The notes under the pieces were generated by a model, which saw nothing but the letters and a program-made list of their open reading frames with translations, had not been told where the DNA came from and ran no database searches. DNA of 64,000 nucleotides from a bacterium (GTDB lineage Bacteria > RBG-13-61-14 > DATKZS01): positions 288,001-352,000 of the forward strand of contig CAXXFL010000006.1 in assembly GCA_963674965.2 (NCBI GenBank). Direction: 5' to 3'. The translations under genes and the position numbers were made by a program. Below are positions 34,664 to 63,208 of the stretch, in pieces. The stretch's first letter is position 1; each line of letters starts with the position of its first letter.

Positions 34664-34681
34664 GATAAAACTCCATTTCAA

Positions 34682-38149: not shown

Positions 38150-38151
38150 GA

Positions 38152-39351
38152 TTAGCTTTCCTTACCCGCAATCATGGCGGCTGCGTCGGTGAATATTTTT
38201 TCAACTTCCTGGGTGGATTCGGGGTCAAAGTCCGTGGTGAAGAGGTCTGGCGCTTTTTCGCGTAACGGCTTTATGACATTTTCCTTCCACTCGGGGAGCA
38301 AGGCGTCGAGGTCGGCCTTTTCGACCGTGATAGTCCCCGAGGTTTCCAGACCATCCGGCGTAGTAGAGAAGATGATTTTTTCCAGCCAAAGCTGGTCAAG
38401 CCCCACATCGGTAGCTCGGCCGCGGAATTCATTGCGCCAGTACTCCCGGTTCGCGGTCATTTCAACATGGGCTGGCGTCGCACCCGATATTACCAGTCGA
38501 AGCGCCAATGGCCGATCATCGGTTTCGGCAAGTTCACTCTTCATTAGGGCTTCGGCACGCTCCACAACATCACGGGCATCGCCCGCGCCACTCGCATCAA
38601 CCTCGGCCACGGACCATCGCATTACATCCAGTTCCCGCCACTCGGCCGTGAGTTCAGTTTCGTCGCCGCTGACAATCAGGCAGCCCTTAGGACCGGTCTC
38701 CCGGATGTGTCGTCCCTGGATGCATCCTGGATAGGCGATAAGAGGATCGTGCGACAACTCTTCGCGGGTATGCACATGGCCTAGCGCCCAGTAGTCATAG
38801 CCTCTACGTACTAGGGATTCGACCGAGCAGGGAGCATAAGTGTTATGCGCGGAGTTGCCACTGGCGCTGGTGTGCAACAACCCGATGTTGATGAAGCCTG
38901 GCAATGGTGCGGGGTAACTCCGGACGAAGTCGGCATCGGTTTCGCGGCTGGCGAAGCTCCGTCCATGAACAGCCACCCTCAGATCGTTAAATTTTTTTGT
39001 GCTGGCCTGGCCTGACTCAAAGACATGAACATTATTGGGTAAAGACAAGCTACGGGTGATAATGCTGTCAGCGTCATGGTTTCCTTTTACGATGCAGACC
39101 GGGAGGCCGCCAAGACGCGATAGTTGCTTGTTCAGATAGAGGATGGTGTTGTAATCGCGCAAGGCACCGTCGTAGAGATCGCCTGCTATAAGCAGTAAAT
39201 CAACCTTTTCGGCATGGGCTAGATCAACCATATTCTCCAAGGCTCGTCGAGTTGCGCGTCGAACTTGGTCAACTGGTGCCCCTTCATATCTCTCTAGCCC
39301 CAAAAGGGGACTGTCGAGGTGGATATCGGCTGCATGAATGAACTTGATCAT
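38152..39351 (-). CDS. Mre11/SbcD-like metallophosphoesterase nuclease, YhaO family
   Basis: ADIHLD, GDLYD, GNHD, LHTS, LGHVH. Confidence 0.92.
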   Translation of the reverse strand: MIKFIHAADIHLDSPLLGLERYEGAPVDQVRRATRRALENMVDLAHAEKVDLLLIAGDLYDGALRDYNTILYLNKQLSRLGGLPVCIVKGNHDADSIITRSLSLPNNVHVFESGQASTKKFNDLRVAVHGRSFASRETDADFVRSYPAPLPGFINIGLLHTSASGNSAHNTYAPCSVESLVRRGYDYWALGHVHTREELSHDPLIAYPGCIQGRHIRETGPKGCLIVSGDETELTAEWRELDVMRWSVAEVDASGAGDARDVVERAEALMKSELAETDDRPLALRLVISGATPAHVEMTANREYWRNEFRGRATDVGLDQLWLEKIIFSTTPDGLETSGTITVEKADLDALLPEWKENVIKPLREKAPDLFTTDFDPESTQEVEKIFTDAAAMIAGKES

Positions 39352-39389: not shown

Positions 39390-40358
39390 TTACTCACTAA
39401 CTGTCACTATATCACCAAAGCTCCTAATCCATGCTCTGATTTCCTCCGAGTCCGACACCTTCATGGTAAGCGTCACCGAGCCGTTCTTGTGAACTTTGCA
39501 CTTCTGCGACCGGTGCCACTGGCGGGAACATATGTAGTCGCAGAGCTCGGGCGGGAACTTGAGCTTGAAGGTCTTTTTCTCGCCGGTCGAGAAGATGCCA
39601 AAAGCCCCGTCGAGCAACTGCTCCGGATGGTACTTGGCCGGGTAGTCGAACTTCTCTTGAGTTACTTCAACCTCCCGGAGCCGCTCAATGTTGTAATAGA
39701 CGGGGCGCTCGTGATTCAACGTGCGGGCGACGAGATAGAGACCGCCCTTGTGGTACAGCAGCGTTAGAGGCTGGACAGTGTAGTCGCAAGGATCACACCC
39801 GCCGGGCTTGTAGTGGATATTGATGACATTCTGGTAGACGATGGCTTTGATCACGTCCGAGAGCATTTCGTCATGACCCGAGTAATCCTTGGGTGCCCAA
39901 GGCGCTGAGAAGAACTTTCTCGGCAGGTCCTTGATAAGGCCCCGGTGGGCACTGGTCAGCTTTTGCTCGACTTCCCTGAGCACGTCGTCAACCAGGTCCA
40001 CGAACAGGTTGTTGACCCCGAGCATCTTGAAAATCTCAAGCGACAGGTAGACCGAAATAAGCTGGTAGATGTTCGCCTGTGATTTGTCGTCGTACTTGGA
40101 CCGGCGCACTAGCCATTCCTCCCCGCCTTGTTTCTCCACCATGAACTGCGGGTCATCATGCTCCGTCACAAACTCCTCATTCAGGGCCTTGACGTAGCGC
40201 TTGACCGTCTGTTCGCTCACGCCCAGGCTATCGGCCACGGTCGCCAGTCTTTTGCCCAGCCCATGCCTTGGCATCTCGTCCACCAGCCGGGCCATGCGGA
40301 CCGCTGACGGATAGGTGGCCTTCCTGTATCCCTTGCCCTTACTTTTAATCTTCGCCAT
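39390..40358 (-). CDS. WYL-domain transcriptional regulator (wHTH-WYL-WCX)
   Basis: LGVSEQTVKRYVKAL HTH; VQPLTL...LYLVA...YNIERL; WIRSFG; RBS GAGGAGG. Confidence 0.9.
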   Translation of the reverse strand: MAKIKSKGKGYRKATYPSAVRMARLVDEMPRHGLGKRLATVADSLGVSEQTVKRYVKALNEEFVTEHDDPQFMVEKQGGEEWLVRRSKYDDKSQANIYQLISVYLSLEIFKMLGVNNLFVDLVDDVLREVEQKLTSAHRGLIKDLPRKFFSAPWAPKDYSGHDEMLSDVIKAIVYQNVINIHYKPGGCDPCDYTVQPLTLLYHKGGLYLVARTLNHERPVYYNIERLREVEVTQEKFDYPAKYHPEQLLDGAFGIFSTGEKKTFKLKFPPELCDYICSRQWHRSQKCKVHKNGSVTLTMKVSDSEEIRAWIRSFGDIVTVSE

Positions 40359-40410
40359 CCTGCATCCTCCTCGTTCGCTTCCGCTATTAATACTATTATA
40401 CACACAGCCA

Positions 40411-40535: not shown

Positions 40536-41207
40536 TCAGTCTTTATGGTGCGTGACCTTGGTACCGTCAATGTATACTTCTCGACCACACGGGCAGATGT
40601 AGGAGTCTGCTATATTGGGAATGCCATAGGTCACGCCCAAAATTGGGCATTTGAAAACTTTATGCCCACCGAAGAGGTAGTCATAGCCAAGGTCATTGCA
40701 ATCCTTTAGGACAAAATCACTTCTAATTATCTTCTGTCCAGCATCCAAGATGCACTTCATTTTCTTATAGACTCCGGGGCGGGATCGGAAGGAACTGATG
40801 TTTCCTCTTTTCATGACGACCACAGCAAATGTGTCGGCAAAATCTTCTTCACTATCGAACCAAGCGTACCAGGAAATCCATTTGTTATCATCTAATATCA
40901 AATCGGGGTGATTTCTCCGATAATCCGCCAATTCGTTCCAAGGGTCCTCAAATCGCTTCTGATACTTAAAAAAGGAACGGTAGCCTCTTAAGGGCTTTTT
41001 CCTGCACCAGTAATCCTGGAAGGCATGTCCCATCTCGTGTGCTATCAGCTTTTCGGTGGTTCTGTTATTTATCATCGCCTTGAATAGACCTAATGGACCC
41101 TCAAGCTCATTCAGATTCCAAGCTACATCAACCCGTCCGGTTGCGCTGTTAAGGCTGGCAGCCGTTCTTGGCAGGGACAATGAGCAATGGACACCCGAGG
41201 AAATCAA
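40536..41207 (-). CDS. HExxH zinc metallopeptidase-like protein (start uncertain, may be 5'-damaged)
   Basis: AHEMGHA, SWYA...EEDFADTFA; C-terminal CP..CPC; no ATG start. Confidence 0.6.
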   Translation of the reverse strand: MISSGVHCSLSLPRTAASLNSATGRVDVAWNLNELEGPLGLFKAMINNRTTEKLIAHEMGHAFQDYWCRKKPLRGYRSFFKYQKRFEDPWNELADYRRNHPDLILDDNKWISWYAWFDSEEDFADTFAVVVMKRGNISSFRSRPGVYKKMKCILDAGQKIIRSDFVLKDCNDLGYDYLFGGHKVFKCPILGVTYGIPNIADSYICPCGREVYIDGTKVTHHKD

Positions 41208-41288: not shown

Positions 41289-42257
41289 TTAACCAAGCCA
41301 GAATTTGGGATGATCAAAATCATGCTCTTTCAATAAGGTGCGGAGTTTATTTAAGTGGTTTATCCGGCCATTCTCCAATTCCTTTTTAGTGCCAATAATT
41401 AATAGTTCTGGTTGTTTCCTAAGACGAAGGCTATTTTGACATAGTTCTAGTATTTTTATCCCTTGAATGTTTTGGAATGATGTAAAGAATTTTTCTGGAA
41501 AAGCTTTTTGATGGATAAAATGCAAATAATTGGCGGCAACCAATTTGTAGGTTTCGATTATTTGGGATTCGTGCTGCAGAAATTCTCTGTAATGAATCAT
41601 CTGGGCAATTATCTCTGGTGGACTGTCCTTTTCTGCCTTGAGTCTAGAGTCCCTAACTAATTTTACTTCTGTAAGAACCAGATAAGGTAATCCATCAACC
41701 ATTTCAATACGGGCTAAATCGATCCTGTCTGCAACATATTTTCTTCCAGTCACTGATTTTATCCGTTCGTCTTCGGTTCTTCCACGCCGAAATGCAATTT
41801 CTAGATCGATCAAAAAAATATCTTTGTTTTTGAACATTGCACCAAGATATTTTTGAATACTTTCTTTCTCGCCAGAGATATGTCTTTGAGAAATGTACGC
41901 AAATGGATTCTCTAAGAGACCTGAAAATCTCCAACCACTTTGAGAAACCAAATCATTGCCATCATTCGAGAGCTTTAATTTAATATAGGGGTCCTTTCCT
42001 TCAAACTGATCGGCTTCACTGGCCAAATCTGTGTACTTGTAATGAATTCTAAACGGAGACTTTGAGTTGGGATGGTATCTAAGGACAGAGCAACCTTTCC
42101 AGTAGATATTGATGTAATTGTCCCTAATGCATATCTGATAATTATGAATCCCTTCAGCAAGTAATTTCTGCGCAATTAAGGTTTTAAAGAAAATATTGGC
42201 CCTCTCAAGAACTTTTGGATTCATACCCCTTTTAAAGGAAAATTCAGTGGCTTTCAT
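41289..42257 (-). CDS. Hypothetical protein with PD-(D/E)xK nuclease-like motif
   Basis: DLE...RIDL...LTEVKL..DSRL...QMIHY; RBS GGAGG; visibly AT-rich. Confidence 0.65.
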   Translation of the reverse strand: MKATEFSFKRGMNPKVLERANIFFKTLIAQKLLAEGIHNYQICIRDNYINIYWKGCSVLRYHPNSKSPFRIHYKYTDLASEADQFEGKDPYIKLKLSNDGNDLVSQSGWRFSGLLENPFAYISQRHISGEKESIQKYLGAMFKNKDIFLIDLEIAFRRGRTEDERIKSVTGRKYVADRIDLARIEMVDGLPYLVLTEVKLVRDSRLKAEKDSPPEIIAQMIHYREFLQHESQIIETYKLVAANYLHFIHQKAFPEKFFTSFQNIQGIKILELCQNSLRLRKQPELLIIGTKKELENGRINHLNKLRTLLKEHDFDHPKFWLG

Positions 42258-42856
42258 GAGAATAAACCTCCGTTTCTAAAACATAACATACTATCCAAAT
42301 ACAGTGAGAAAAGTATCATATCAACAAGTGTCCATCATCGGCATTTGATACATTTTTGAAAAATTTCTCGAAATGATCTGCGCTCTCCGTATGGACAGGA
42401 ACAAGCTTGCGTGCATTGATGGCCTCTGCAAACACTTTGAGCTGGTCGAGGTTCGCATGGCCGCTGGTATGAATGTAGTGGAATTTGATGGCTTTATCAT
42501 CTTGGAAGCCCGCCATCATTTCGGCCCCCTGCATACTTTCCCAACGACTTGGGTCAAGGTAACCGCGCCATTGTGAATAGATGATGTTGACCGGATGTTC
42601 TTTTCTGTTTCTGTAGGCGTCAACAACTTTGGCCCCAGACGTTCTTATCACGCTCAGGTAATTCTCGGGCCTTTTGTATATCTGGTTTTTATTTATCGCC
42701 CTTCTCTCGGATCGCTCCCAAAAGTCCCCGAAATATTCAGGATTAGCCTCGACCAAAGCAGGCGGCGTACCAGAAGACAAGACCCGCCCCTCTGTGCCAA
42801 CGTAGATGAGACACTTCCCCTATGTTAAATTACTGTAGGGCGGGGGAGGTATTAGG

Positions 42857-43396
42857 ATGTATAGAGAGATGGATGAAGACAGGAAGAAGGCAGGGATTGT
42901 TGGGGAGACGGAGGGAGCCCGTAGGGCGACCGGAGTCTCCCCAACCGGGACGGCCGAGCCGGAGGACACTCCTGCCAAGCGGCCCGAGCGGGTGGGGGCG
43001 CCGATCATTCTTCCCGAGCCGGAGGTCCCGGAAAAGCCCGCCCGGCGGCGCTTCACCGCGGCTTACAAGCTCGCAATCCTCGGGAAGGCCGACGCCTGCT
43101 CGGGGCATGGCGAGGTCGGCGCCCTGCTGCGCCGGGAGGGCCTTTATTCGTCGCACCTGACGGCCTGGCGCAAGCAGCGGGACGAGGGGGCCTTGAAAGC
43201 GCTTTCGCCCGTAAAGCGGGGCCGCAAGCCCAAGGCCAAAAACCCGCTGGCCGATGAAGTGGCCCGCCTCGAGCGCGAGAACCGGAAGCTCCAAAAGCGG
43301 CTCGAACAGGCCGAGATGATAATCGACTTCCAAAAAAAAGTTGCCGATCTGCTGGGGATACCCCTGGCCAAGCCGCCCGGCGAAGAGAGCGAATGA
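42857..43396 (+). CDS. IS3 OrfA
   Basis: RRRFTAAYKLAIL, LLRREGLYSSHLTAWR, coiled-coil tail. Confidence 0.88.
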   Translation: MYREMDEDRKKAGIVGETEGARRATGVSPTGTAEPEDTPAKRPERVGAPIILPEPEVPEKPARRRFTAAYKLAILGKADACSGHGEVGALLRREGLYSSHLTAWRKQRDEGALKALSPVKRGRKPKAKNPLADEVARLERENRKLQKRLEQAEMIIDFQKKVADLLGIPLAKPPGEESE

Positions 43397-44409
43397 TGGA
43401 ATCGGCAAGCACGGCCGCTCCCCGGGTCGGCGCCAAGGCCGCCTGCGAGGCCCTGGGCCTGTCGCGAGCAACGTTTAATCGTCGCGCTAAAATTCCCTTC
43501 GGGCCTCCGCCGCCGAGGCGCGCGGCCAAGCCGGCAAGGTCGTTGAGCGAGGACGAGCGGCGCCGGGTGCTGGACGAACTCCACTCCGAGCGCTTTGCCG
43601 ACAAGGCCCCCCGCGAGGTCTGGGCAACGCTCCTGGACGAGGGGACATGGCTGTGCTCGGTCCGCACCATGTACCGCGTCCTCGACTCGGAAAAGGAAGT
43701 CCGGGAGCGGCGCAACCAACTCCGGCGTCCCCGATACAAAAAACCCGAGTTGCTGGCCGAGGCCCCCAACCAGGTCTGGTCCTGGGACGTCACCAAACTC
43801 AAGGGACCGGCCAAATGGACCTGCTACCAACTCTACGTGATCATGGACATCTTCAGCCGCTGCGTGGTGGGATGGATGATCGCCGGACGCGAAAGCGCGG
43901 AGCTGGCCCGCCGCCTGATCGGGGACAGCATCCGAAAACAGGGGATCGAGCCGGGACAACTCACCATCCACGCCGACCGGGGGAGTTCGATGAAATCAAA
44001 GCCGGTGGCCTTCTTGATGGCCGACCTGGGCGTGACCAAGAGCCACTCGCGGCCCCACGTGTCCGACGACAACCCCTACTCGGAAAGCCAGTTCAAGACC
44101 ATGAAGTACCGGCCCGAGTTCCCGAGCCGGTTCGGCTCCATCGAGGACGCCAGGGCCTTTTGCGTGAAGTTTTTCGATTGGTACAACCGCGAGCATCGGC
44201 ACACCGGGATCGGCCTGATGACGCCCGAGATGGTCCATTACGGAATGGCGAGCGAGATCGTGGCCGCCAGGCAAAAAACGCTCGACCACGCCTATGAAAA
44301 AAAACCGGAGCGCTTCGTGAAAAGACCGCCGACGGCGCCGGAGTTGCCCGGCAAAGCGTGGATCAACCCACCGGCGAAACCGGAGGAAATAAACAGTTTG
44401 CCACACTAA
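43393..44409 (+). CDS. IS3 OrfB DDE transposase
   Basis: WSWDVT, HADRG, DDNPYSES, WYNREHRHTGIG. Confidence 0.92.
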   Translation: MMESASTAAPRVGAKAACEALGLSRATFNRRAKIPFGPPPPRRAAKPARSLSEDERRRVLDELHSERFADKAPREVWATLLDEGTWLCSVRTMYRVLDSEKEVRERRNQLRRPRYKKPELLAEAPNQVWSWDVTKLKGPAKWTCYQLYVIMDIFSRCVVGWMIAGRESAELARRLIGDSIRKQGIEPGQLTIHADRGSSMKSKPVAFLMADLGVTKSHSRPHVSDDNPYSESQFKTMKYRPEFPSRFGSIEDARAFCVKFFDWYNREHRHTGIGLMTPEMVHYGMASEIVAARQKTLDHAYEKKPERFVKRPPTAPELPGKAWINPPAKPEEINSLPH

Positions 44410-45268
44410 ATTCAGGAAAGGCGTGTCTCATTTTGCTTGACACATTCCGCGCATCCATTTCCATTCCATGCTCGGGACACCATCCGTCTTGAGCTTCATC
44501 TGCTCCAGAATCCAGGCGGTGTAGAGGTCGAGCACCATGGTCTTCTTGGCATCACGACAAGCCTTCCATGCGACAGTGAGCCTGTCCACATTCTGCCCCG
44601 AACAGACCAGGAAAGAAATATTCTTCTGGTCCTTGATGATGTTGTAAATTTCCCTGCCGATCTTTTCTTCGGTCTTTGCCGCGTTTCCGTCCCGACCGAT
44701 GTTGGTGCCTTCCATGATAAGGACATCTATGTCCTTGGGCGGGCGCTTCACAATCCGGTCAAAGAGCTTTCCCTTCTTGCCGTGGGAACGAAAGTCGCCG
44801 GAGTAGAAGACCCGCTTGCCTCCGGCCTCGACCAGAAAGGCAAAGGACTCCGGGGATGAGTGGTCCACAAGATAGGGAGTGATGGTAAAGCCGGCCACCT
44901 TGAATGGCTTCCGGTCGTCAATGTACTTGAACTCGCGGGACATAGGATCTCCCTTCCTGAAAATGCGAACCGCGTCGATCAGCCTCCTTCCGATCTCGCC
45001 TATGTAAATGGGCACGCCGGGAGCCAGTTCTTCCATCCGACCATAGTGGTCCTGGTGCGGGTGACTGATGATGAGGGCCTCCGGTTTGAAGCCCGTCAGG
45101 TCCACAGGCTTGGATTCGGGAGCAAGGGGCATCCCCAGTTCAAGCAGGATTGACCTTCCTGCATGAGAAAGTTCGATGCAGGTCCCGCCGATCTCATGAG
45201 AGCCTTTATGTATCTTGATCTTCATTGCAGCACTCTGCCCATAGTTTAGTCTTTCCGGAGTCGCGAAT

Positions 45269-47626
45269 TCAACCATGGGTCTCCATCCGCTCGTTGGCCC
45301 TCCTGAACTCATCAGGGTAGTTGGCCTTGAGGAATGCGCATCGGTAGGTGATTAGCGAGTAGGCCACAGCATGAGCCTTGTTGAAGGTAAATGAGATAAA
45401 AGCCCGAATTTCCTCAAGCAGGCCTTCCGCTTCATCTGTTGATAGCCCATTAGCCACCGCCCCGGTGATGAATCCATCCTCCAGATCAGACCTCTCGGGA
45501 AGTCGCTTAACGAGTTTCATTCTTAATGCATCGGCCTCCATGATGGACATGCCACCGATATCCATGCAGACTCTCAATACCTGCTCCTGGTAGACCCAAA
45601 CGCCATAGGTCTCGCTCAGGATTGGAGCAAGCTGCGGGACTGAGAAGTCAATGATGGCACTGTCATGCTTGGATGCGATCATTTGGTCCATAAAGCCTTG
45701 AGCCAACGGGCCGGGCCGATACTGCGCCATGACCGCGGCCAGGTCAGAGAAGCAATCCGGCTTCATCCTTGTCAACACCGACTTTGATCCCTCGCTTTCA
45801 AATTGAAACACGCCATCAGTGTCCCCCGCGCCAAGCAGTTCGTAGGCTCTACGGTCATTAAGCGGCAGCCTGCTGAGATTCAATTCAATGCCTTTCGTTC
45901 TGAGATCATCAAGGCAATAGCCAAACATGGTGACGGTCTTCAAACCGAGAATGTCAAACCTGACCAGTCCAAGACGCTCAACATCCTTCATGTCCACATG
46001 CACAATTGATTCCTGTCCACCACTAATATCTACTGGGGCGAGACTCTCCAATGACACATCCGAGACGACTACGCCAGCGGCATGCGTTGAACTATGTCGC
46101 AGTAGGCCTTCCAACTTCTCGGCAATTTTAAACAGATGATCGTATTTTGAATCTGTCTTTATCAAACGGGCCAATTCGGGAACTTCTTCCCGTGCTTCAC
46201 TCAGGTAGCTGTGAGGGGGGACCAGTCGTACTATCCTGTCGATTTCCTCTTGCCCTAATTTGAGGATTCTACCAATATCTCGTATAGCGGCCTTTGCTTT
46301 CATGGTTCCGAATGTGAGTATCTTGGCCACATGTTCTGGTCCTCCGTATTTCTCAATAATGTAGCTGATTACCTCATTCCTTCTTACGTCTCCGACATCA
46401 ACGTCGATGTCAGGAAAAACTGTCCGCTCCGGGTTAAGAAACCGCTCCGCGATGAGGCCGTGAGCCACGGGGTTTACATCGGTGATTCCCAGACAATAGT
46501 TCACTAGGCTGGCCGCCGCCGAGCCTCTGCCCGGGCCGACGGGTATGCTGTTGTCACGAGCCCAGTTCATATAGTCGGCAACTATCAGGAAATAGTCGGC
46601 CAAGTCGTGCTCAAGTATAGTGGCCATCTCATTTTCAAGCTGTCCCAGGTATTGAGGTTCACGAGAGAGGAATTCAGGATCGCTTATTTCAAAGTCCGTC
46701 CTTCTTTCCTTGAATCCTTCAGTAACTTGTTCCCTGAGCAGATCGGATGCACTTTTTCCCGAAGAAGTCCTGAAACTGGGAAGATGAATCTCATTAAGAT
46801 TGAAATCGAAGCAACATCTATCGGCTATCACGAGGCTGTTGTTGAGGGCATTGGGACAGTCAGCAAAAACCTCGGCCATCTCCTGGGCGGAACGAAAGTA
46901 GTAACCGGTCGCCAGGGGCGGGTCGCTCTTGGGAAAATCCGGCCAGGCTTGGCCCGACCTCATATAGAAAAGAACATTGTGGGCATTGGAATCTTCAGGG
47001 TCCAGATAGGCGCAGTAACCGGCGGCGACGACTGGTATGTCCAGTTCTTTGCCGAGCGCGATGAGACGCTTGTTGACCATCGTCTCTCCCGGCAATCCAC
47101 CATTGACCAGTTCGAGGTACAGGCGGTCTCCGAAAACATCCTTGTACCACTGGGCAGCCTGAGGAGCTTCTTCCTCCCTGCCGAATAAAAGTCCCGGCAG
47201 TTCACCATCCAAAAACCAGCCGGAAAGGGCTATCAGGCACTCGTTGTGTTTGGCAATCATCTCCTTTGTGACCAAGCCTGGGAACTGGCCGGAGCCTATG
47301 CTGGCCCTGGTCAAAATTTTGCACAAGTTTCTGTATCCGGCCTCGTTCTGACAGAGCAGTACCAGACTGTGACTTTCCGTCTCGGGATCACTGGCGTCAG
47401 TTGGGGCAACCTCCACCTCGCAGCCAATGATTGGCTTTATCCCGACACGTCTCGCCTCGATATAGAACTTCACAGCACCGGAGAGGGTCATGTAGTCCGT
47501 AATGGCCACGGCTGGCATGTTGAAATCTTTAGCCCGCTCCACCAGGTCCCGGACGCGAATCATGCTCCGAAGAAGGCTGAACTCGGTGCGAACATGAAGG
47601 TGTACGAATGAATTATTAGTGCGCAT
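45269..47626 (-). CDS. dnaE: DNA polymerase III alpha (DnaE)-like protein, C-terminally short, degenerate PHP domain
   Basis: GPGRGSAA, PDIDVD, FDILGL, GVFQFES, YRPGP, YQEQ, FNKAHAVAY; ends shortly after KANYPDEF. Confidence 0.9.
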   Translation of the reverse strand: MRTNNSFVHLHVRTEFSLLRSMIRVRDLVERAKDFNMPAVAITDYMTLSGAVKFYIEARRVGIKPIIGCEVEVAPTDASDPETESHSLVLLCQNEAGYRNLCKILTRASIGSGQFPGLVTKEMIAKHNECLIALSGWFLDGELPGLLFGREEEAPQAAQWYKDVFGDRLYLELVNGGLPGETMVNKRLIALGKELDIPVVAAGYCAYLDPEDSNAHNVLFYMRSGQAWPDFPKSDPPLATGYYFRSAQEMAEVFADCPNALNNSLVIADRCCFDFNLNEIHLPSFRTSSGKSASDLLREQVTEGFKERRTDFEISDPEFLSREPQYLGQLENEMATILEHDLADYFLIVADYMNWARDNSIPVGPGRGSAAASLVNYCLGITDVNPVAHGLIAERFLNPERTVFPDIDVDVGDVRRNEVISYIIEKYGGPEHVAKILTFGTMKAKAAIRDIGRILKLGQEEIDRIVRLVPPHSYLSEAREEVPELARLIKTDSKYDHLFKIAEKLEGLLRHSSTHAAGVVVSDVSLESLAPVDISGGQESIVHVDMKDVERLGLVRFDILGLKTVTMFGYCLDDLRTKGIELNLSRLPLNDRRAYELLGAGDTDGVFQFESEGSKSVLTRMKPDCFSDLAAVMAQYRPGPLAQGFMDQMIASKHDSAIIDFSVPQLAPILSETYGVWVYQEQVLRVCMDIGGMSIMEADALRMKLVKRLPERSDLEDGFITGAVANGLSTDEAEGLLEEIRAFISFTFNKAHAVAYSLITYRCAFLKANYPDEFRRANERMETHG

Positions 47627-48077
47627 GAATCCGCTCCCCAGGCTGGACAATCGCCTTGATTCCCCGGTCCATGAACTCCTCGAAATCTTCGAGGTTGCCG
47701 CTGAACTTTTCGCCGGACATCTTCTCCACCTGGGTGACTATGGACTCGATGATTTCCGGTACGTCCATCATTGTAGTGGGGTCGGGCATGAAGTAGGAAC
47801 CAGTGGTCCACCTGCTGACGCGATTGAACCAGCACAGCAATCTCCGAGGCAGAGCGTTAAGAATCCTCACCCAGAAAGGAGGAATCTGGCCGACATTCGC
47901 CTCGTCTTCAAACTTGACGACCGTTACCTTGACCCATCTGTTCATATTGAGAACTACGTCGCACTTTCCGCAATAGAGGAAATGGAAGGCTTTGGCCGGG
48001 TCGGACTCAAGCACGTATTGTTGAATCCCGACCATGACCTCTTCTTCGCACTTCGGACAGAATGCATACACCCCCAT
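47616..48077 (-). CDS. Small zinc-ribbon protein
   Basis: CPKC...CGKC; RBS AAAGGAG; overlaps the dnaE start. Confidence 0.7.
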   Translation of the reverse strand: MGVYAFCPKCEEEVMVGIQQYVLESDPAKAFHFLYCGKCDVVLNMNRWVKVTVVKFEDEANVGQIPPFWVRILNALPRRLLCWFNRVSRWTTGSYFMPDPTTMMDVPEIIESIVTQVEKMSGEKFSGNLEDFEEFMDRGIKAIVQPGERIHAH

Positions 48078-48586: not shown

Positions 48587-50038
48587 TCATGTTTTAATGG
48601 GAAGGGGAAGGCTCTTGAGCGTCATTGTTATCTCGTCCTCGCCTATGGTGATTCTTTCGATGATTGTCTCGATGATTTTTCGCTTCTCATCATCTGATAG
48701 GTTCGACCACCTTGATTGGAGTTCTTTTGATTCGCTTAGTATCTGCTTCTTGGTGAGCTGGCTGATTCTCAGGTAATCGAGTTCACCCTGTAGCTCTGGC
48801 AATTGCTTCTCGATGTTCTGAAACCTCTCCTCAAGCGGGTTGTAACGGCGTCCAAAACCTTTTCTTGGGATTTCTCCTTCATCGAGCAGCTTGAACAGCT
48901 TGCCCATTTCTCGCCAAGTTTTCTTCTGTTCTTCATGAAGCGTTTTTAGCAATGCTTCCTTGTCTTTCATCTGTTGTTCTGCTTCGCTCATCAATTGTGA
49001 TACCGGATTAGATGATTTCACGATTCCCTTTAGTTGGGTTCGGAATATCTCCTCTAGGTCTCCTTTCGGAATTTTTCTTCGACATTTTTGACAAATGTAT
49101 TTCGGTGAGTTTGATGGCATGTACATCTTGCCCCCGCATTGGCAGTAAACAATGCCCGTGAACAGCTTGACCTCCTTGCGAGTGGGCTTCTTTGTCCTTT
49201 TCTCGATTTCATCGAGAATCTGGTTGCACCTTCCCCAAAGCTCTTCGGAGACGACCGGTTCCACCTCGCTGAAGACCCACTCATCTTGGGACTTCAACTC
49301 CCATTGGTTTTCGTTCTTGAGGCTTCTCGTGTAATTCGCTCTCCGTACTCCTTTGGCGGTTGGGTCTCGGAGCAGCCTGGTGACTGTCGTATCGCTGAAC
49401 TTCGCTCCCTTCCTCGTGCGGTACCCTTGTTCGTTCAGGATGCGGGCAACGGTCTTCTTTCTTCTGTGTTCGAGGAACAGTTCATAGATGAGCTTTCTGA
49501 CCGGAGCCTCCTTATGATTCGGCGCCAGCTTGCCGTCCTTCCACTGATACCCGAAGCTGGCCTGGCCTCCTGTTGACTTGCCAAGTTTGGCGCGTTCAGG
49601 CACCGAAGCCTTCACCCGTTTGGAGGCCTCCTCTCGCTCCCACTGAGCCATGACCGGCACCAGGGTATGAAAGAGCTTCCCGGCGGGGGTTGAAGTGTCT
49701 ATGGACTCATCCAGGACTACCAGGTCGGCATCGTGGCTGGTAAAGTAATCCGAGAGATCCATCAGTTCCTTGGTGTTTCGGGCGAGACTGGCGAGACGAG
49801 TTGCGATGAGGCCGGTGATTCGGCCAGTCTTGATGTCCTTGAGCATTCGCTTGGCCTCTGGGTTATCCAGCACGCGCTCGCTTTCCATCGCCTCGAAGTG
49901 ATAGACCTCCCTGACGGTCCAGTCCTTGCCATTCGCATACTTACGAGCACGCGCCACCTGAGCCTCTGGGACGCCATCTTGGGCCTGGCCTCCAGAAGGT
50001 CCTTCAATCCAGATGCCGATATTTTTTACTCCCCCCAT
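48587..50038 (-). CDS. Large serine recombinase family protein with degenerate catalytic motif
   Basis: IDTSTPAGKL, AQWERE, FGY, recombinase domain, CQCG...CQKC Zn ribbon, coiled coil; N-terminus reads WIEGPSGGQ instead of xRVSTxxQ. Confidence 0.88.
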   Translation of the reverse strand: MGGVKNIGIWIEGPSGGQAQDGVPEAQVARARKYANGKDWTVREVYHFEAMESERVLDNPEAKRMLKDIKTGRITGLIATRLASLARNTKELMDLSDYFTSHDADLVVLDESIDTSTPAGKLFHTLVPVMAQWEREEASKRVKASVPERAKLGKSTGGQASFGYQWKDGKLAPNHKEAPVRKLIYELFLEHRRKKTVARILNEQGYRTRKGAKFSDTTVTRLLRDPTAKGVRRANYTRSLKNENQWELKSQDEWVFSEVEPVVSEELWGRCNQILDEIEKRTKKPTRKEVKLFTGIVYCQCGGKMYMPSNSPKYICQKCRRKIPKGDLEEIFRTQLKGIVKSSNPVSQLMSEAEQQMKDKEALLKTLHEEQKKTWREMGKLFKLLDEGEIPRKGFGRRYNPLEERFQNIEKQLPELQGELDYLRISQLTKKQILSESKELQSRWSNLSDDEKRKIIETIIERITIGEDEITMTLKSLPLPIKT

Positions 50039-50170
50039 GGTCAATCCTTTTGAATCGTATGAATGATATGGTAGAGGGCCACATAACCTAAGGTACAAGG
50101 TTGTGTTGCCTTGTCAACCTCTTCCCGAATCAGCCATAATTATTAAAGCTAGCCAAACTTAATAATCAAC

Positions 50171-50510: not shown

Positions 50511-50771
50511 ATGGTCCAATCTCAAAACCCTATGTATAGGGCCAGAGAAATCAGGGCCAACGTAAAAGGGACGACTTATCCAGAAATCAGCAAAGGACGT
50601 TTCCGCGAGATGTTAGACATCATGCCTTCATCAACAGTGATGAGGGAGTTTTCAAATCTTGTAATTGATATAATTACCCACGTAAGGCTTTTTAAAAATC
50701 AAATCGTCAAACTTCAACAGGCACGGGATATCCTTCTTCTACGTCTGATGTCAGGAGAAATCACATTATGA
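50511..50771 (+). pseudogene. hsdS: C-terminal fragment of a type I R-M specificity subunit (HsdS)
   Basis: GTTYPEISK...KLQQARDILLLRLMSGEI is the conserved HsdS C-terminal helix; only 86 aa. Confidence 0.7.
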
Positions 50772-52108
50772 AAAGGACAAGACCCCCAATGGTATCTGAA
50801 AGTGACGACTTAGGTGGAAGTGGTGGCATAAAGGGAGATACTAAGACCACCAGATCAACGGCTGGCACATTAAAGTTTCTCGCGCCAGGGAAAACAGATT
50901 GGCTTGAACTAGATCCAGATATTAAAGAAGACGACGAGAACGTGCAAGCGATAAAAGACCAAGCGAGCGAAGCTGCAAACACCATAAAGGAGGTCCTTTT
51001 AACATCCCTTCAGATGCCTAATATTATCGTCTTGTCCGGAAGCGGCACATCAATAGGCAATGGAATCGGGGGACCATCAATGGAGGACCTATGGGATGTT
51101 GCCATGAGCGATCATTCTTCTGAAACAGAAGAAGGTCGACAGTTACGAGAATTAGCCCAAAGAGTCATTAAAAAGGTGGGTTACTCTATAGAAGAACATG
51201 GGGAAAATATAGAGGCCTTTCTTTCGCGCTGTGAAGCTTACCTTGAAATAAGGCATCAAAAATATGTAGCCGATTTTGTAATAGAGTGTAAAAAAGCGAT
51301 TTTGGGACGATGCTCAAACTTTCTTTACAAACAAGCCACTGATGAATGGGATGACGATAAGCTTGATGGGCACAAAACTTTTCTTCACCGCCTTTCCCGA
51401 AGGCGAGTCCGAGATCCAAGATTAAAGGTATTCACTACGAACTATGATCTTTGCTTCGAAAGAGCAGCCGCTCTACTCGGTCTGGTTGTAATTGATGGCT
51501 TTTCTATCGGTCAGCCCCGCCGTTTTCGTCCGGACTATTTTGAATATGATATTGTTCGTCGATCATCTCAAGGAGCAGAGATTGGCGATCCGCTTGAAGG
51601 AGTTTTTCATCTTCTCAAGCTTCATGGTTCTGTAAATTGGGAACTCCAGGATGATGGTAACATTCTTGAAAAGCTGCCTCCCGAGCCGGAAAAGGCATGT
51701 ATGATTTACCCCGTAAGCGGTAAATACCAACAGTCTTACATTCAACCCCACTTGGAATTGATGGCTCAATTCTTAGCCTCGCTTCGAAAACCAAATACTT
51801 GCTTAATTGTAGCTGGCTTTGGATTTAACGATGATCATCTTTCAGAGCCAATTATATCGGCTATTAAATCGAATTCTCAACTGAGGGTCATAGTTGCGGA
51901 TTATAAAGCCGAGGACCAAATTGAGGGAGGAATGGAGAAAGTAAGCAAATATTGGAGACTGCTCTCCGATTTAGCAAAAACTGGAGAAAGCATTTGGTTC
52001 TTCAATGTATCCTTTGGGGATTTTGCATACCTTTTGCCAAACCTAAAAGCATTAACACCAGCACAGCAACTAGAGAAGGCGGTAAAGGGTTTGAATACAC
52101 CAAGCTGA
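50768..52108 (+). CDS. SIR2-family NADase of a Sir2-HerA defence system
   Basis: SGSGTS, FTTNYD, DGF, LKLHGSVNW, GFGFNDDH. Confidence 0.9.
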   Translation: MKRTRPPMVSESDDLGGSGGIKGDTKTTRSTAGTLKFLAPGKTDWLELDPDIKEDDENVQAIKDQASEAANTIKEVLLTSLQMPNIIVLSGSGTSIGNGIGGPSMEDLWDVAMSDHSSETEEGRQLRELAQRVIKKVGYSIEEHGENIEAFLSRCEAYLEIRHQKYVADFVIECKKAILGRCSNFLYKQATDEWDDDKLDGHKTFLHRLSRRRVRDPRLKVFTTNYDLCFERAAALLGLVVIDGFSIGQPRRFRPDYFEYDIVRRSSQGAEIGDPLEGVFHLLKLHGSVNWELQDDGNILEKLPPEPEKACMIYPVSGKYQQSYIQPHLELMAQFLASLRKPNTCLIVAGFGFNDDHLSEPIISAIKSNSQLRVIVADYKAEDQIEGGMEKVSKYWRLLSDLAKTGESIWFFNVSFGDFAYLLPNLKALTPAQQLEKAVKGLNTPS

Positions 52109-52120
52109 GGACTTAACACT

Positions 52121-53851
52121 ATGAGTGCAAATGATTCAGACAAAGGCCTTCTTCTTCCAAAGCTGCGGATGGGAGTGGTGTCTTCTGTGAATGCAAATAT
52201 TGCTCGCATTAATCTTAGGGACGCCGGATTCCCCAGTGGTACTTATTATGAGGCTAGCCGTTACGGTCTCGGTGAGGTCGGAGAGTTTGTTCTCATTGAA
52301 GGGCAACAATTCTTAATTTTGGGCCGAGTTATTGAAATACGACTACCAGAGGGCGACCGGAGGTCCATTACACAGGATTTCCCGGGGTCTTCTGGACTTG
52401 ACGCTATCGGAAGTATTCAACTTCTTGGTACCGTATCAATGACAGATGAATTGTCGGTTACCGCAGGTGTCGTAGCATATCCAAGACTCGGAGACCGAGT
52501 GTATGCAGCACCTCACCAATTTGTTGCCCTGATCCCGATATTGATCAAACAGTCACCGGATAAAAAGGATCCAGACAAAATTCAGTTAGATTTGGGGGCT
52601 GTTGGACCTGCAAAAGAAAGCAGTGTTTTTATACCTCCTGAAAAGCTCTTTGGCCGCCACTGCGCGATACTTGGAGCAACCGGCGGTGGTAAAAGTTGGA
52701 CAGCGGCAAGAATTATAGAAGAGTGCCTGAGGTATAAGGCCAAGATTATTCTCATTGACCCTTCTGGTGAATATCGTGGAATGAAGGGGGAAAAAATACG
52801 GCATTGCCACCTTGGGAATCCTATTGAGAAAGCGGCTAAATCGGTATCTTGCTCTTTACCATCAACCTGTTTTCAAGAATCAGATTTTATTGCCTTGTTT
52901 GAGCCTGCTGGAAAGGTGCAAGGTCCAAAACTTCGAGCTGCAATTAGAAGTTTACGTCTCGCCAAATTAAAGCCAGAAATAGCCCCAAATGGATTTATCG
53001 AAAAGATAAATAAAACCAAAGCCCCAATCACTAGCGCAGAAAATGAGTCTGGCATTTCAGAAAAACTTGATGATCCTACCCAAGAATTTGAGGTTGGTAA
53101 TCTTGTGAAGCAGATAGAACAAGAGTGTGTCTGGCCTGACGCTTACGGAGGTGATGGAAGTAAATGGGGCAAAGAAGACGGAAATTTTTCACACTGTCTT
53201 TCATTGGTCACTAGAATCAATGGTGTTTTAACTTCTACTGCGTTTGCTTGTGTATTTAGTTGTAGTGATGATCCTATCCTAATCGACCAAGTCCAAGAGT
53301 TCCTTGAAGGTGATCAACGGTTATTGCGAATATGTCTCAGTGGGATTGCCTATGAATTCAAAGCACGTGAAGTCATTGCCAATGCTATAGGGAGACACTT
53401 GTTAAACGAGGCACGATCAGGAGCGTTTAGAAATCAGCCCGTAGTCGTTTTTGTTGATGAAGCACACAATTTTCTTGGCAGGTCAATTGGTGGAGAAGAC
53501 ACTATCGCTCGCTTAGATGCCTTTGAACTCTTGGCAAAAGAAGGACGTAAGTATGGCGTGAATATATGTGTTGCTACCCAGAGACCTAGAGATATAACGG
53601 AAGGCGTACTTAGCCAGTTGGGGACTCTCATCGTGCATAGGTTGACAAACGACCGTGACAGAGAGGTTGTTGAAAGGGCCTGTGGAGAAATAGACCGCAC
53701 TGCCTCAGCATTTCTTCCTAACCTTAAAGCCGGGGAAGCTGCGATTATCGGTGTTGACTTCCCAATACCGCTGACAATTCAGATGAAAAAACCGACTCAT
53801 CGGCCTCAATCTGAAGGTCCTAACTTTCAAAAAAATTGGGATGTGGAGTGA
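52121..53851 (+). CDS. herA: HerA/DUF87 ATPase of a Sir2-HerA defence system
   Basis: N-terminal HAS-barrel-like region, RHCAILGATGGGKS, DEAH, KEGRKYG, ATQRP. Confidence 0.9.
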   Translation: MSANDSDKGLLLPKLRMGVVSSVNANIARINLRDAGFPSGTYYEASRYGLGEVGEFVLIEGQQFLILGRVIEIRLPEGDRRSITQDFPGSSGLDAIGSIQLLGTVSMTDELSVTAGVVAYPRLGDRVYAAPHQFVALIPILIKQSPDKKDPDKIQLDLGAVGPAKESSVFIPPEKLFGRHCAILGATGGGKSWTAARIIEECLRYKAKIILIDPSGEYRGMKGEKIRHCHLGNPIEKAAKSVSCSLPSTCFQESDFIALFEPAGKVQGPKLRAAIRSLRLAKLKPEIAPNGFIEKINKTKAPITSAENESGISEKLDDPTQEFEVGNLVKQIEQECVWPDAYGGDGSKWGKEDGNFSHCLSLVTRINGVLTSTAFACVFSCSDDPILIDQVQEFLEGDQRLLRICLSGIAYEFKAREVIANAIGRHLLNEARSGAFRNQPVVVFVDEAHNFLGRSIGGEDTIARLDAFELLAKEGRKYGVNICVATQRPRDITEGVLSQLGTLIVHRLTNDRDREVVERACGEIDRTASAFLPNLKAGEAAIIGVDFPIPLTIQMKKPTHRPQSEGPNFQKNWDVE

Positions 53852-53924: not shown

Positions 53925-55586
53925 CCCTCTGTGCCAACGTAGATGAGACACTTCCCCTATGTTAAATTACTGTAGGGCGGGGGAGGTATTAGGATGTATA
54001 GAGAGATGGATGAAGACAGGAAGAAGGCAGGGATTGTTGGGGAGACGGAGGGAGCCCGTAGGGCGACCGGAGTCTCCCCAACCGGGACGGCCGAGCCGGA
54101 GGACACTCCTGCCAAGCGGCCCGAGCGGGTGGGGGCGCCGATCATTCTTCCCGAGCCGGAGGTCCCGGAAAAGCCCGCCCGGCGGCGCTTCACCGCGGCT
54201 TACAAGCTCGCAATCCTCGGGAAGGCCGACGCCTGCTCGGGGCATGGCGAGGTCGGCGCCCTGCTGCGCCGGGAGGGCCTTTATTCGTCGCACCTGACGG
54301 CCTGGCGCAAGCAGCGGGACGAGGGGGCCTTGAAAGCGCTTTCGCCCGTAAAGCGGGGCCGCAAGCCCAAGGCCAAAAACCCGCTGGCCGATGAAGTGGC
54401 CCGCCTCGAGCGCGAGAACGGGAAGCTCCAAAAGCGGCTCGAACAGGCCGAGATGATAATCGACTTCCAAAAAAAAGTTGCCGATCTGCTGGGGATACCC
54501 CTGGCCAAGCCGCCCGGCGAAGAGAGCGAATGATGGAATCGGCAAGCACGGCCGCTCCCCGGGTCGGCGCCAAGGCCGCCTGCGAGGCCCTGGGCCTGTC
54601 GCGAGCAACGTTTAATCGTCGCGCTAAAATTCCCTTCGGGCCTCCGCCGCCGAGGCGCGCGGCCAAGCCGGCAAGGTCGTTGAGCGAGGACGAGCGGCGC
54701 CGGGTGCTGGACGAACTCCACTCCGAGCGCTTTGCCGACAAGGCCCCCCGCGAGGTCTGGGCAACGCTCCTGGACGAGGGGACATGGCTGTGCTCGGTCC
54801 GCACCATGTACCGCGTCCTCGACTCGGAAAAGGAAGTCCGGGAGCGGCGCAACCAACTCCGGCGTCCCCGATACAAAAAACCCGAGTTGCTGGCCGAGGC
54901 CCCCAACCAGGTCTGGTCCTGGGACGTCACCAAACTCAAGGGACCGGCCAAATGGACCTGCTACCAACTCTACGTGATCATGGACATCTTCAGCCGCTGC
55001 GTGGTGGGATGGATGATCGCCGGACGCGAAAGCGCGGAGCTGGCCCGCCGCCTGATCGGGGACAGCATCCGAAAACAGGGGATCGAGCCGGGACAACTCA
55101 CCATCCACGCCGACCGGGGGAGTTCGATGAAATCAAAGCCGGTGGCCTTCTTGATGGCCGACCTGGGCGTGACCAAGAGCCACTCGCGGCCCCACGTGTC
55201 CGACGACAACCCCTACTCGGAAAGCCAGTTCAAGACCATGAAGTACCGGCCCGAGTTCCCGAGCCGGTTCGGCTCCATCGAGGACGCCAGGGCCTTTTGC
55301 GTGAAGTTTTTCGATTGGTACAACCGCGAGCATCGGCACACCGGGATCGGCCTGATGACGCCCGAGATGGTCCATTACGGAATGGCGAGCGAGATCGTGG
55401 CCGCCAGGCAAAAAACGCTCGACCACGCCTATGAAAAAAAACCGGAGCGCTTCGTGAAAAGACCGCCGACGGCGCCGGAGTTGCCCGGCAAAGCGTGGAT
55501 CAACCCACCGGCGAAACCGGAGGAAATAAACAGTTTGCCACACTAAATTCAGGAAAGGCGTGTCTCATTTTGCTTGACACATTCCG
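53925..55586 (+). mobile_element. IS3-family element, copy 2 (1662 bp), intergenic
   Basis: Same ends as copy 1; DR AAC; orfA 53994-54533, orfB 54530-55546. Confidence 0.95.
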
Positions 55587-55633
55587 AACCTGGGTTTTGT
55601 CGAAAACAATGCCTCCAACATGGAGAATGGATT

Positions 55634-58600: not shown

Positions 58601-59554
58601 GATCTCGCTACATCATCGCCTTCAAGTCCTTCGCTTTTTGCTTACCATGCGGCTCTTGTATTACTTGATGCAAAGGCGCTTTTTTCAAAAAACCGGGTTT
58701 CGGAGATGCTCGATCCAGCAATAAAAGCCAACCGGTCAGCCGTGGAACGTCATCATCTATTTCCCAAGGGGCACCTAAAGAAGAAAGGTATAACAAGCAC
58801 AAGGGATATTAACCAAATTGCCAATTACGCCTTCGTGGAATGGGGCGACAACACCAAAATATCAGACCAGGCTCCCGCTGAATATTTTCCTGAACTCAAA
58901 GCACGTTTTTCATCAGATGAGTTGTCGAAGATGTACAGATGGCATGCACTACCAGAAAACTGGGAACACCTTGAGTATAAGGAGTTTTTAGAGAAACGGC
59001 GTGAACTGATGGCCCAGGTGATAGCGGATGGCTACAGGACGCTTGTCACCAAGGAGGAAGAAGAATCGAAAATTGAGAAGTTTGATTTGAGCAAGGTCGT
59101 TCTCGATGGTGAATCAGAAAGCATTGAGTTCAAATCAACGTTGCGGACTAATTTGCATACCATGAATCAAGACCAACGAATTGAGCTTTCTGTTCTTAAA
59201 ACACTAGCTGGCTTTCTAAACACGAACGGCGGGACATTGGTTATTGGTGTATCTGATGAGGGTAATCCCGTGGGAATTGAAGTGGATGGATTTAAAAATG
59301 AGGACAAAATGAGCCTGCACCTTGTGAATATCGTTAAGAACAGAATGGGTTTACAGGCCATGACCAATATTCATTTCCACTTCGAAGATTATGAGGATAG
59401 CCGCGTTATGGTTGTCGGATGTAAGATGTCTCCCACACCAATTTTCACTAAGGATGGAGATGTCGAGCGCTTCTACATTAGGACGGGTCCGTCCACCACT
59501 GAGCTAAGCGCAAGTCAAACTCAAGAGTACATTAAGTATAGGTTCAAAAAATGA
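55634..59554 (+). pseudogene. DUF262 (GmrS-like) - HNH-like (DUF1524-like) - Schlafen AlbA_2 fusion, interrupted by IS3 copy 3
   Basis: LPDIQRPFIW, DGQQRLT, FVRINSKG; ERHHLFP..NQIANY; GESESIEFKS..AGFLNTNGGTLVIGV; removing the IS and one DR restores ...FKRARLKY... (751 aa). Confidence 0.88.
56478..58139 (+). mobile_element. IS3-family element, copy 3 (1662 bp)
   Basis: Same ends as copy 1; DR CGC; orfA 56547-57086, orfB 57083-58099. Confidence 0.95.
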
Positions 59555-63205: not shown

Positions 63206-63208
63206 GCC

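Follow-up and report, generated by a model that had tools for sequence, protein, structure and literature searches.

A conserved short DnaE that retains the polymerase active site is encoded beside a small Zn-ribbon protein and an RNase J-like nuclease in a bacterial defense island

C-family DNA polymerases are known as replicases (DnaE1, DnaE3, and PolC) and, in the case of DnaE2, as part of a mutasome; DnaE2 keeps the clamp-binding and OB domains. A construct of the E. coli replicase subunit Pol III α that comprises residues 1–917 is reportedly active. The same construct was used for crystallography (PMC3666897), and it shows that Pol III α without its C-terminal domains folds as a stable core. 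Naturally shortened members of the family have been set aside in surveys, one of which describes removing fragments without an intact active site (PMC3919608) and another discarding truncated sequences before tree building (PMC12926913). In full-text literature searches, we found no description of a DnaE truncated mid-fingers or of a cassette that combines DnaE with a metallo-β-lactamase (MBL) nuclease. Here we analyze a 64,000-nucleotide stretch of a bacterial genome (GCA_963674965.2, contig CAXXFL010000006.1, positions 288,001–352,000 of the forward strand; hereafter the window, with coordinates counted from its first nucleotide), in which a minus-strand gene at 45269..47626 encodes a DnaE of 785 amino acids (aa) that ends within the fingers, retains the polymerase active site, and lies between genes for a small Zn-ribbon protein and an RNase J-like MBL. 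A first reading of this gene, made without database searches (the sequence-only reading), had described it as a minimal DnaE, and we refer to its claims where our results bear on them.

The open reading frame (ORF) extends from 45269 to 47650 when read from a TTG start, and homologs support an ATG at 47626, which yields the 785 aa of database protein P0003. Three Pfam domains exceed their cut-offs, PHP (residues 17–181), DNA_pol3_alpha (304–569), and DNA_pol3_finger (574–735), and together they give a PHP domain with a degenerate metal site, followed by the palm, the thumb, and the index and middle fingers. No Pfam match in P0003 was found to the HhH clamp-binding domain (HHH_6, PF14579) or to the OB fold (PF01336). 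In a phmmer comparison with solved structures, residues 6–777 correspond to residues 5–785 of E. coli Pol III α (2HNH) and the protein ends ~8 residues beyond E. coli position 785, equivalent to α residue ~785–793, a point that we take to be the end of the middle finger. The stop codon lies 11 residues past the motif YPDEF. Since the protein ends at column ~810 of a 1201-column alignment and full-length relatives run ~370 residues further, the tau-binding C-terminal domain is absent, as are the remaining fingers, the HhH/clamp-binding domain, and the OB fold, all of which are present in the full-length relatives. When all frames of the window were searched with a profile built from our own DnaE alignment (A1), with the C-terminal domains included, no further DnaE-like ORF was detected. 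Thus, the sequence-only reading was correct that the ORF ends just after YPDEF with no remainder and that the HhH, clamp-binding, OB, and tau-binding regions are missing.

Scores against family models place the protein among C-family polymerases, closer to DnaE1 than to DnaE2. It reaches 802.7 bits with the superfamily model TIGR00594 (cut-off 434.35), as expected of a C-family polymerase. With the DnaE1 model NF004226 it reaches 837.2 bits, below the equivalog cut-off of 1002, the match covering model positions 3–779 of 1146, and with the error-prone model NF004225 it reaches 490.4 bits (cut-off 939), which is below its scores with the DnaE1 models. By the comparison of 837 with 490 bits, the protein is not a DnaE2, which fits the earlier view that this is not a typical DnaE2 cassette. 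An AlphaFold2 model made from a 20-row alignment was predicted with a mean predicted local distance difference test (pLDDT) score of 89.3 and a predicted template modeling (pTM) score of 0.86, and Foldseek aligned it to the Pol III α subunits of E. coli, Thermus, and M. tuberculosis with query-normalized TM-scores of 0.87–0.93. Phage records matching the short DnaE number 1423, all below 60% identity, with the best at 40%.

A similarity search with the window DnaE returned 7988 matches, and we examined the best 120. Among these 120, two proteins of 788 aa, P0004 and P0005, are 64% and 63% identical to P0003, contain the same three domains only, and share with the window protein the tail RxAxERMExxG; the next matches are full-length DnaE1 proteins at no more than 47% identity. 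A search with the PHP region added P0257 (794 aa), P0325 (778 aa), and P0328 (795 aa), encoded on contigs of 22, 13, and 8 kb. These also have the same three domains, and they stop 8–14 residues after a Y-x-x-(E/V)-F motif, which corresponds to residue ~789–791 of the full-length protein P0006. The sequence-only reading had named a truncation unique to this genome, with full-length nearest homologs, as the finding that would overturn it. Instead, five other proteins end alike, two sharing the tail and three the boundary. Judged from these alignments, the truncation is conserved and is not a private deletion.

The short DnaE is an extra copy. The window genome (G000) holds three C-family genes: a 1190-aa frame encoding a full-length DnaE1 (P0007, assigned to this genome because 35 of 38 of its 30-mers occur in locus L001), the short DnaE, and a 1029-aa DnaE2-like gene. 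We placed the six short proteins in a quick maximum-likelihood tree of 53 rows, the others being 45 full-length proteins cut to 830 residues (21 chosen and 24 random), a full-length DnaE that adjoins an MBL gene in locus L062, and the DnaE2-like gene of G000 as outgroup. The window clade, carried on a long stem (1.0 substitutions per column), emerges here as sister to a DnaE1 clade that includes P0007, with a Shimodaira–Hasegawa-like approximate likelihood ratio test (SH-aLRT) value of 97. P0257 and P0328 form a separate clade, and P0325 falls elsewhere on a long branch. Taken on this quick tree only, the starred branches would force the short form to have arisen at least twice.

The polymerase active site is retained in all six short proteins. 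In P0003, D406, D408, and D558 (in the motifs PDIDVD and FDILGL) align to the catalytic D401, D403, and D555 of E. coli, in agreement with the earlier claim that the three catalytic aspartates are intact, and the GS motif is present as R367-G368-S369. By motif, Q608, R637-P638, and H752 would correspond to Q638, R667-P668, and H787, which are described as nucleotide-pocket residues of M. tuberculosis DnaE1 (PMC8922275). R367, G368, S369, D406, D408, D558, R637, P638, K750, and H752 are kept in six of six. The PHP metal site has fared differently. At the nine ligand positions, H,H,D,H,E,H,C,D,H (Table 1 of PMC3666897), P0003 has H,R,R,Y,E,S,W,Y,A and so keeps two of nine, as the sequence-only reading had indicated in calling the ligands lost, compared with all nine in 111 of 111 full-length reference DnaE1 proteins. 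The sixth position is ambiguous, as the phmmer alignment puts a His one residue upstream on E. coli H83. P0004 and P0005 keep three of nine ligands; P0257, P0325, and P0328, in which the Asp triad is also kept, have five, six, and nine, respectively. As a scale for conservation, we used the 245 columns in which identity across the 111 full-length DnaE1 proteins reaches 97% or more. The window protein keeps 38 of 45 such columns in the N-palm, 18 of 24 in the thumb, 17 of 20 in the C-palm, and 44 of 56 in the fingers, and 45 of 69–70 in PHP; its substitutions in the polymerase domains are mostly conservative.

Compared with the best-described members of the family, the protein therefore has a mixed character. 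With the DnaE1 proteins of known structure (2HNH/5FKV, 2HPI, and 5LEW/7PU7), it shares the PHP-palm-thumb-fingers core, the Asp triad, the GS motif, and the pocket residues, and it differs from them in its end point, its PHP ligands, its long stem, its score below the equivalog cut-off, and its status as an additional gene. Like DnaE2 (ImuC), the error-prone enzyme of the imuA-imuB-dnaE2 cassette, it would be a non-essential second C-family polymerase without proofreading or a tau-binding end, but it scores as DnaE1-like, has no imuA/imuB nearby, and coexists with a separate DnaE2-like gene. Relative to the E. coli 1–917 construct, this natural short form stops ~130 residues earlier and has dedicated partner genes.

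Those partner genes recur. On a 12.8-kb contig of another genome (locus L004, genome G003, which also has a full-length DnaE1), the small gene, the short DnaE, and the MBL gene lie in the same order and with the same spacing as in the window. At both loci, the stop of the small gene overlaps the DnaE start by 11 nucleotides, and a 43-nucleotide spacer separates the DnaE stop from an inner ATG of the MBL gene. The sequence-only reading had placed the MBL start 44 nucleotides downstream; by our count the distance is 43, with the ATG at 45225. Identity between the window and L004 proteins is 78% for the small protein, 64% for the short DnaE, and 88% and 70% for the N- and C-terminal parts of the MBL. 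Estimates of nonsynonymous (dN) and synonymous (dS) divergence are 0.13 and 1.27 for the small gene, 0.12 and 0.98 for the MBL gene, and 0.26 with saturated dS for the short DnaE. The dN/dS comparison that had been suggested with the sequence-only reading thus points to purifying selection on all three cassette genes. Taken together, these findings establish the short DnaE as a DnaE1-derived extra paralogue, reduced to the catalytic core, that is under selection and conserved and that shares an operon with a unique Zn-ribbon protein and an RNase J-like nuclease in settings rich in defense and mobile genes.

The first gene of the cassette (47616..48077, minus strand) encodes a protein of 153 aa with an N-terminal CxxC...CxxC Zn-ribbon pattern and a helical C-terminal part. 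It is 78% identical (119/153) to the product of L004:6556-7017, and C7, C10, C36, and C39, which form the two CxxC pairs, are invariant. The protein is single copy in the genome and rare, with 12 relatives among 1.84 billion representative proteins. It has no match in Pfam, NCBIfam, or PADLOC; its AlphaFold2 model (pLDDT 82) has no fold match in the PDB at E ≤ 0.001. It was absent from the other MBL loci that we collected, profiles did not link it to other small genes adjoining MBL genes, and a single-sequence search gave no relative on viral contigs. Scans for promoters and terminators gave counts that do not exceed shuffled controls. In L004, the intact cassette is preceded by genes for an ADP-ribosylglycohydrolase and a 1044-aa PD-(D/E)XK protein (354-6482) and is followed by a gene for a 411-aa unknown protein, at the place where the window has the X307 member described below.

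The third gene encodes an RNase J-like β-CASP MBL and is interrupted in the window, a feature absent from the sequence-only reading. Its N-terminal part (44450..45225, minus strand; Pfam Lactamase_B_2 and Lactamase_B) is separated from its C-terminal part (42316..42787, minus strand; Pfam RMMBL) by a 1662-bp insertion sequence (IS) of the IS3 family (42788..44449, plus strand; HTH_Tnp_1 and rve ORFs) flanked by a 3-bp target duplication, CGC. The N-terminal part is 88% identical (254/288) to the intact 444-aa frame of L004, and the C-terminal part is 70% identical (99/142) to residues 292–433 of the L004 MBL. When the IS and one duplication are removed in a script, a 414-aa ORF results that is identical to the L004 MBL at 336 of 415 positions. 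Further copies of the IS lie at 53925-55586 and 56478-58139 in the window, with duplications AAC and CGC, and the three copies differ at 1–3 bases. The genome contains 31 matches to the IS, of which 24 are full length and 18 of those are at 100%, and in the strain's own sequencing run the IS has a depth of ~467 compared with 17 for the flanks. Near-identical copies and high depth indicate an IS expansion, and the insertion is therefore recent. Contigs assembled from the strain's own run match the unique flanks with 0 differences; none joins across the IS site, and they are not informative about an IS-free allele. The cassette as a whole is probably disabled in this genome. As the nuclease gene was split recently, the intact short DnaE here says little about whether it can act alone.

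The start of the MBL was considered separately. The inner ATG at 45225 begins MKIKIHKG; an ATG at 45312 would open a longer frame that runs over the end of the DnaE gene, but homologs of ~412–415 aa favor the inner start. The frame between 45225 and 45312 (MSSGGPTSGW...) is open and conserved between the window and L004, which could reflect an alternative start or a conserved DnaE tail plus spacer. We also considered a DnaE-MBL frameshift fusion, for which the overlapping frame is conserved in L004, but homologs of ~412 aa begin at the inner ATG.

RNase J and its β-CASP relatives are the closest described proteins to this MBL. In profile comparisons with solved structures, it matches 2AZ4 (hypothetical protein EF2904) with an E value of 2e-25 and RNase J structures with E values of 1e-18 to 1e-9, and the L004 MBL contains the Pfam domains Lactamase_B_2 and RMMBL. 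Unlike RNase J, the cassette MBL is short (~415 aa), scores 65 against RNase J family models with a cut-off of 400, and belongs to a large unnamed family (4386 matches, mostly 412–415 aa and ~47% identical) that is paired with another gene, X307. The close form of the MBL (identical or 87%) occurs in 2 of 13 genomes of the phylum, G000 and G003.

Searching metagenomes with the MBL alignment gave 80 loci, whose MBL relatives are 34–54% identical and none of which belongs to the close clade. The commonest neighbor, present just downstream in 28 loci, encodes an unannotated protein of ~307 aa, for which we use the working label X307. A profile built from these 28 neighbors detects a member in the window (41289..42257, minus strand; 322 aa) with an E value of 7e-39, and this gene has no Pfam or PADLOC match. 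X307 may be PD-(D/E)XK-like, as its matches to the Atlas clusters REase-ARP/PDDEXK_13 (0.88), NucS_C (0.82), and SduA_C (0.76) provide leads. Beyond it lie a gene for a 223-aa protein (40536..41207, minus strand) with no Pfam, PADLOC, or NCBIfam match and a WYL-WCX transcription-factor-like gene (39390..40403, minus strand; Pfam WYL, WCX, and a weak HTH_11). The latter belongs to the same family as WYL genes beside the MBL in L010 and other loci (profile cl10, E 1e-41) and is probably a regulator of the locus. Of the two kinds of neighbor named in the sequence-only reading, the RNase J-like gene is present at both loci seen and the WYL gene in the window only, none being found among the L004 ORFs scanned. 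None of the short DnaE, the small protein, the window X307, and the MBL, whether split or intact, has a match in PADLOC 2.0. One of four MBL-downstream proteins of ~278–321 aa that were scanned (320 aa, from L030) weakly matches PDC-S11 and PDC-S18, and one other MBL relative matches PDC-M37B with an E value of 6e-4. Among 69 representatives of neighbor clusters, Pfam identified DarT-Macro, REase-ARP, a pPIWI-associated nuclease, toxin-antitoxin proteins, AAA ATPases, and housekeeping proteins. Plasmid examples of the MBL lie beside restriction-modification genes and inside a Tn3-type element.

DnaE-derived genes recur in this wider setting. The DnaE profile matches ORFs in 11 of the 80 metagenome loci (10 of 78 by our own gene calls, and 3 of the 15 loci that extend at least 4 kb to either side), and also in L011, from a genome of the same order. 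We estimate the chance expectation at well under one locus, given one to three such genes per few-Mb genome and 0.68 Mb searched. In five loci (L013, L014, L040, L082, and L083), a gene of 476–490 aa encodes PHP and the C-half of the palm, with nine of nine PHP ligands and D558 replaced. These genes resemble the short DnaE in being DnaE1-derived, truncated, selected (dN/dS 0.23–0.30), and adjacent to the same MBL family. They differ in that, lacking the GS-motif region, the fingers, and part of the Asp triad, they cannot polymerize, and the window protein is their reverse, with the polymerase center kept and the PHP metal site lost. L047 has separate fingers and PHP genes, the fingers gene without catalytic residues, and in L062 a full-length DnaE lies directly upstream of the MBL gene. 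L011 (G009:C314, 8156-12117) encodes a 436-aa N-palm and fingers protein without PHP or thumb that has lost D406, D558, R367, R637, and H752 and that terminates, with ...FPGEFARA, at the boundary seen in the window protein; the same interval contains an MBL gene, a 235-aa weak X307 relative, and a 152-aa unknown protein. In L054 (81-1061, minus strand), on a 3.8-kb contig, a 326-aa C-terminal DnaE piece that begins at ~position 780 (HhH onward) lies by an MBL gene; it covers exactly the portion that is missing from the short form. Each kind of piece is closer to full-length DnaE1 (up to 57–62%) than to the other kinds, which fits repeated capture of DnaE pieces.

What might a replicase core do beside a nuclease? 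We tentatively favor the explanation that the short DnaE is a catalytically active polymerase, independent of the clamp and devoid of proofreading, which acts together with the nuclease on foreign or damaged DNA, since all six ~790-aa proteins have kept the active site despite deep divergence. From the anatomy, conservation, selection, gene order, and context described above, we infer catalytic activity, assembly into a complex, and coupling to the nuclease and to defense. According to this proposal, the protein would be a still-catalytic DnaE1 core outside the replisome, unable to join the holoenzyme because it has no clamp-binding, OB, and tau-binding parts and unable to proofread because its PHP metal ligands are lost. 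Such an enzyme would be expected to make short stretches of DNA with low fidelity and low processivity. It would be one subunit of an operon-encoded machine that also includes the Zn-ribbon protein, the RNase J-like MBL, and, in the window, X307, and that is probably controlled by the WYL-WCX regulator. The MBL could cut or resect foreign or damaged DNA in step with synthesis by the polymerase, allowing nicks or gaps to be processed in a manner resembling, in outline, that of a polymerase with a 5′ nuclease. The system would belong to the gene pool of defense and mobile elements, and the combination points to an undescribed polymerase-nuclease module.

Several observations weigh against this explanation. 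In the window clade, the fingers motif RxAMGKK of full-length proteins has become RMKLVKR, and P0257 is without R702 and K707 in the equivalent motif. M. tuberculosis DnaE1 is described as contacting duplex DNA at ~residue 860 (PMC8922275), in a region that the short DnaE lacks, and DNA binding may be weak unless supplied by a partner, as the ring and little fingers and the HhH are missing. The gene neighborhood was seen for two of the six short proteins. Between the window and L004, nucleotide identity is 65% for the DnaE and 80% for the MBL; as the DnaE is the more diverged, the cassette may be mosaic. Most DnaE-derived genes beside the MBL family have lost catalytic residues and, since these sister pieces are nonetheless selected, the system can use DnaE without polymerization; what a DnaE piece generally contributes to the nuclease system may therefore be something other than polymerase activity. 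Finally, as no cassette protein has a PADLOC match, it is context that suggests repurposing for defense or repair.

A broader version of the proposal would accommodate the catalytically dead pieces. It is possible, if rather doubtful, that the widespread, unnamed MBL and X307 system, often accompanied by a WYL-WCX regulator, has repeatedly captured pieces of the host replicase. Here this would yield a family-C "immune polymerase", a catalytic core free of clamp and proofreading that has a Zn-ribbon partner of its own and that acts with the nuclease on invading or replicating DNA; elsewhere it would yield replicase mimics or fork adaptors. If so, no earlier DnaE-derived protein would have had a defense-type role.

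The main rival is that the short DnaE serves the MBL and X307 system as a non-catalytic mimic of the host replicase, either a decoy that senses phage proteins binding or hijacking Pol III α or an adaptor that guides the nuclease to primer-template junctions, with the active site of the ~790-aa form a by-product of keeping the fold. We consider this unlikely, albeit with several observations in its favor. DnaE-derived ORFs occur in the MBL loci well above estimated chance; their varied architectures, each nearest to full-length DnaE1, fit repeated capture; and the PHP and half-palm genes, the L047 fingers, and the L011 piece are without catalytic residues, the first of these being under purifying selection. 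However, retention of the Asp triad and the nucleotide pocket in six of six proteins, across ~40% divergence and long branches, is not expected of a pure mimic, and the heavily changed PHP surface of the window clade, where 45 of 69–70 invariant columns are kept, would make it a poorer look-alike. The PHP and half-palm pieces keep nine ligands and may simply be PHP nucleases, and no other replisome-derived domain was found among the 69 neighbor-cluster representatives.

A function in host mutagenesis appears more improbable still. Translesion polymerases normally need a clamp-binding region, which the short DnaE lacks. In this explanation, the protein would be a damage-inducible mutagenic or gap-filling polymerase, analogous to DnaE2, that is switched on by single-stranded DNA through the WYL-WCX protein and whose MBL trims ends. 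As in DnaE2, PHP ligands and the tau-binding end have been lost; most DnaE2 proteins are described as having no intact metal site (PMC3919608). A WYL-WCX gene, of a class whose repressors are described as sensing single-stranded DNA (PMC11662680), lies near the cassette in the window and near the MBL in other loci. However, the ORFs scanned in L004 include no WYL gene, and a DnaE2-like gene is already present in the window genome. The claim that imuA/imuB are not nearby was upheld, as a Pfam scan of the window's large ORFs revealed neither a RecA-like nor a Y-family domain, and none of these domains was found among the L004 ORFs scanned. The cassette is also rare and patchy, with the close MBL form in 2 of 13 genomes and 12 relatives of the small protein, and is sited among defense genes and mobile DNA instead of in a core repair locus.

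We regard as very unlikely the possibility that the cassette is the replication or repair module of an integrated mobile element that brings its own minimal polymerase. Immediately upstream, and in the same orientation, is a large serine recombinase gene (48587..50098, minus strand; Pfam Resolvase and Recombinase); IS copies are abundant in the region, and MBL relatives occur on plasmids and, at 33–35% identity, on six viral contigs. However, the recombinase is not conserved in L004, where none was found among the ORFs scanned; the six viral and three plasmid MBL loci contain no DnaE-like ORF; the small protein had no viral-contig relative in the single-sequence search; and the cassette encodes no primase, helicase, or initiator. 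That the gene is a decaying relic or an assembly artifact without function is almost certainly wrong, as, despite an IS-broken partner and a genome in IS expansion, the 785-aa ORF is intact, five proteins on other contigs share its end point (which already contradicts a relic), selection is purifying, the fold is predicted with confidence, and contigs of the strain's own run match the unique flanks exactly.

A natural minimal DnaE with an active site would mark the smallest catalytic family-C unit kept by evolution, and a compact family-C polymerase may be of practical interest. The cassette also offers a handle on an uncharacterized and common MBL nuclease system of defense islands, and it prompts a testable hypothesis, namely that in their conflicts with mobile DNA bacteria put pieces of their own replicase to new use.

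The window from ~22 kb to its end is a defense island that contains SIR2-HerA, GmrSD-like, and PLD-like genes, two SNF2 helicases, an SMC-like ATPase with a phosphoesterase, and an MmeI-like gene. A plus-strand group at 22862-28521 encodes an unknown protein, a VWA-domain protein, an AAA ATPase, a DUF2997 protein, and another unknown protein. On the minus strand, 28507-39351 encodes an SNF2-type helicase, a PLD-like protein, a 445-aa unknown protein, a 1155-aa AAA_27/SMC-like ATPase, and a calcineurin-like phosphoesterase (SbcCD-like); with weak PADLOC matches to PDC-M27C, ZacB/ZacC, and LmuB, this block is probably another multi-gene defense system. A SIR2-HerA pair (50768-53851; PADLOC SIR2 3e-87 and HerA 2e-154) lies by the cassette, between two IS copies. 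A GmrSD_N (DUF262-type) gene (55574-56518) ends at the third IS copy, and a Schlafen AlbA_2 ORF (58127-59554) begins right after it; these look like a second defense gene split or rearranged by the IS, and the ongoing IS expansion has hit at least two defense genes in the window. Finally, 59804-64000 contains a DrmD-like SNF2 helicase (PADLOC DrmD, 1034 bits) followed by an MmeI N-terminal-domain gene that continues past the window end, possibly a DISARM-like or other helicase-methylase system.

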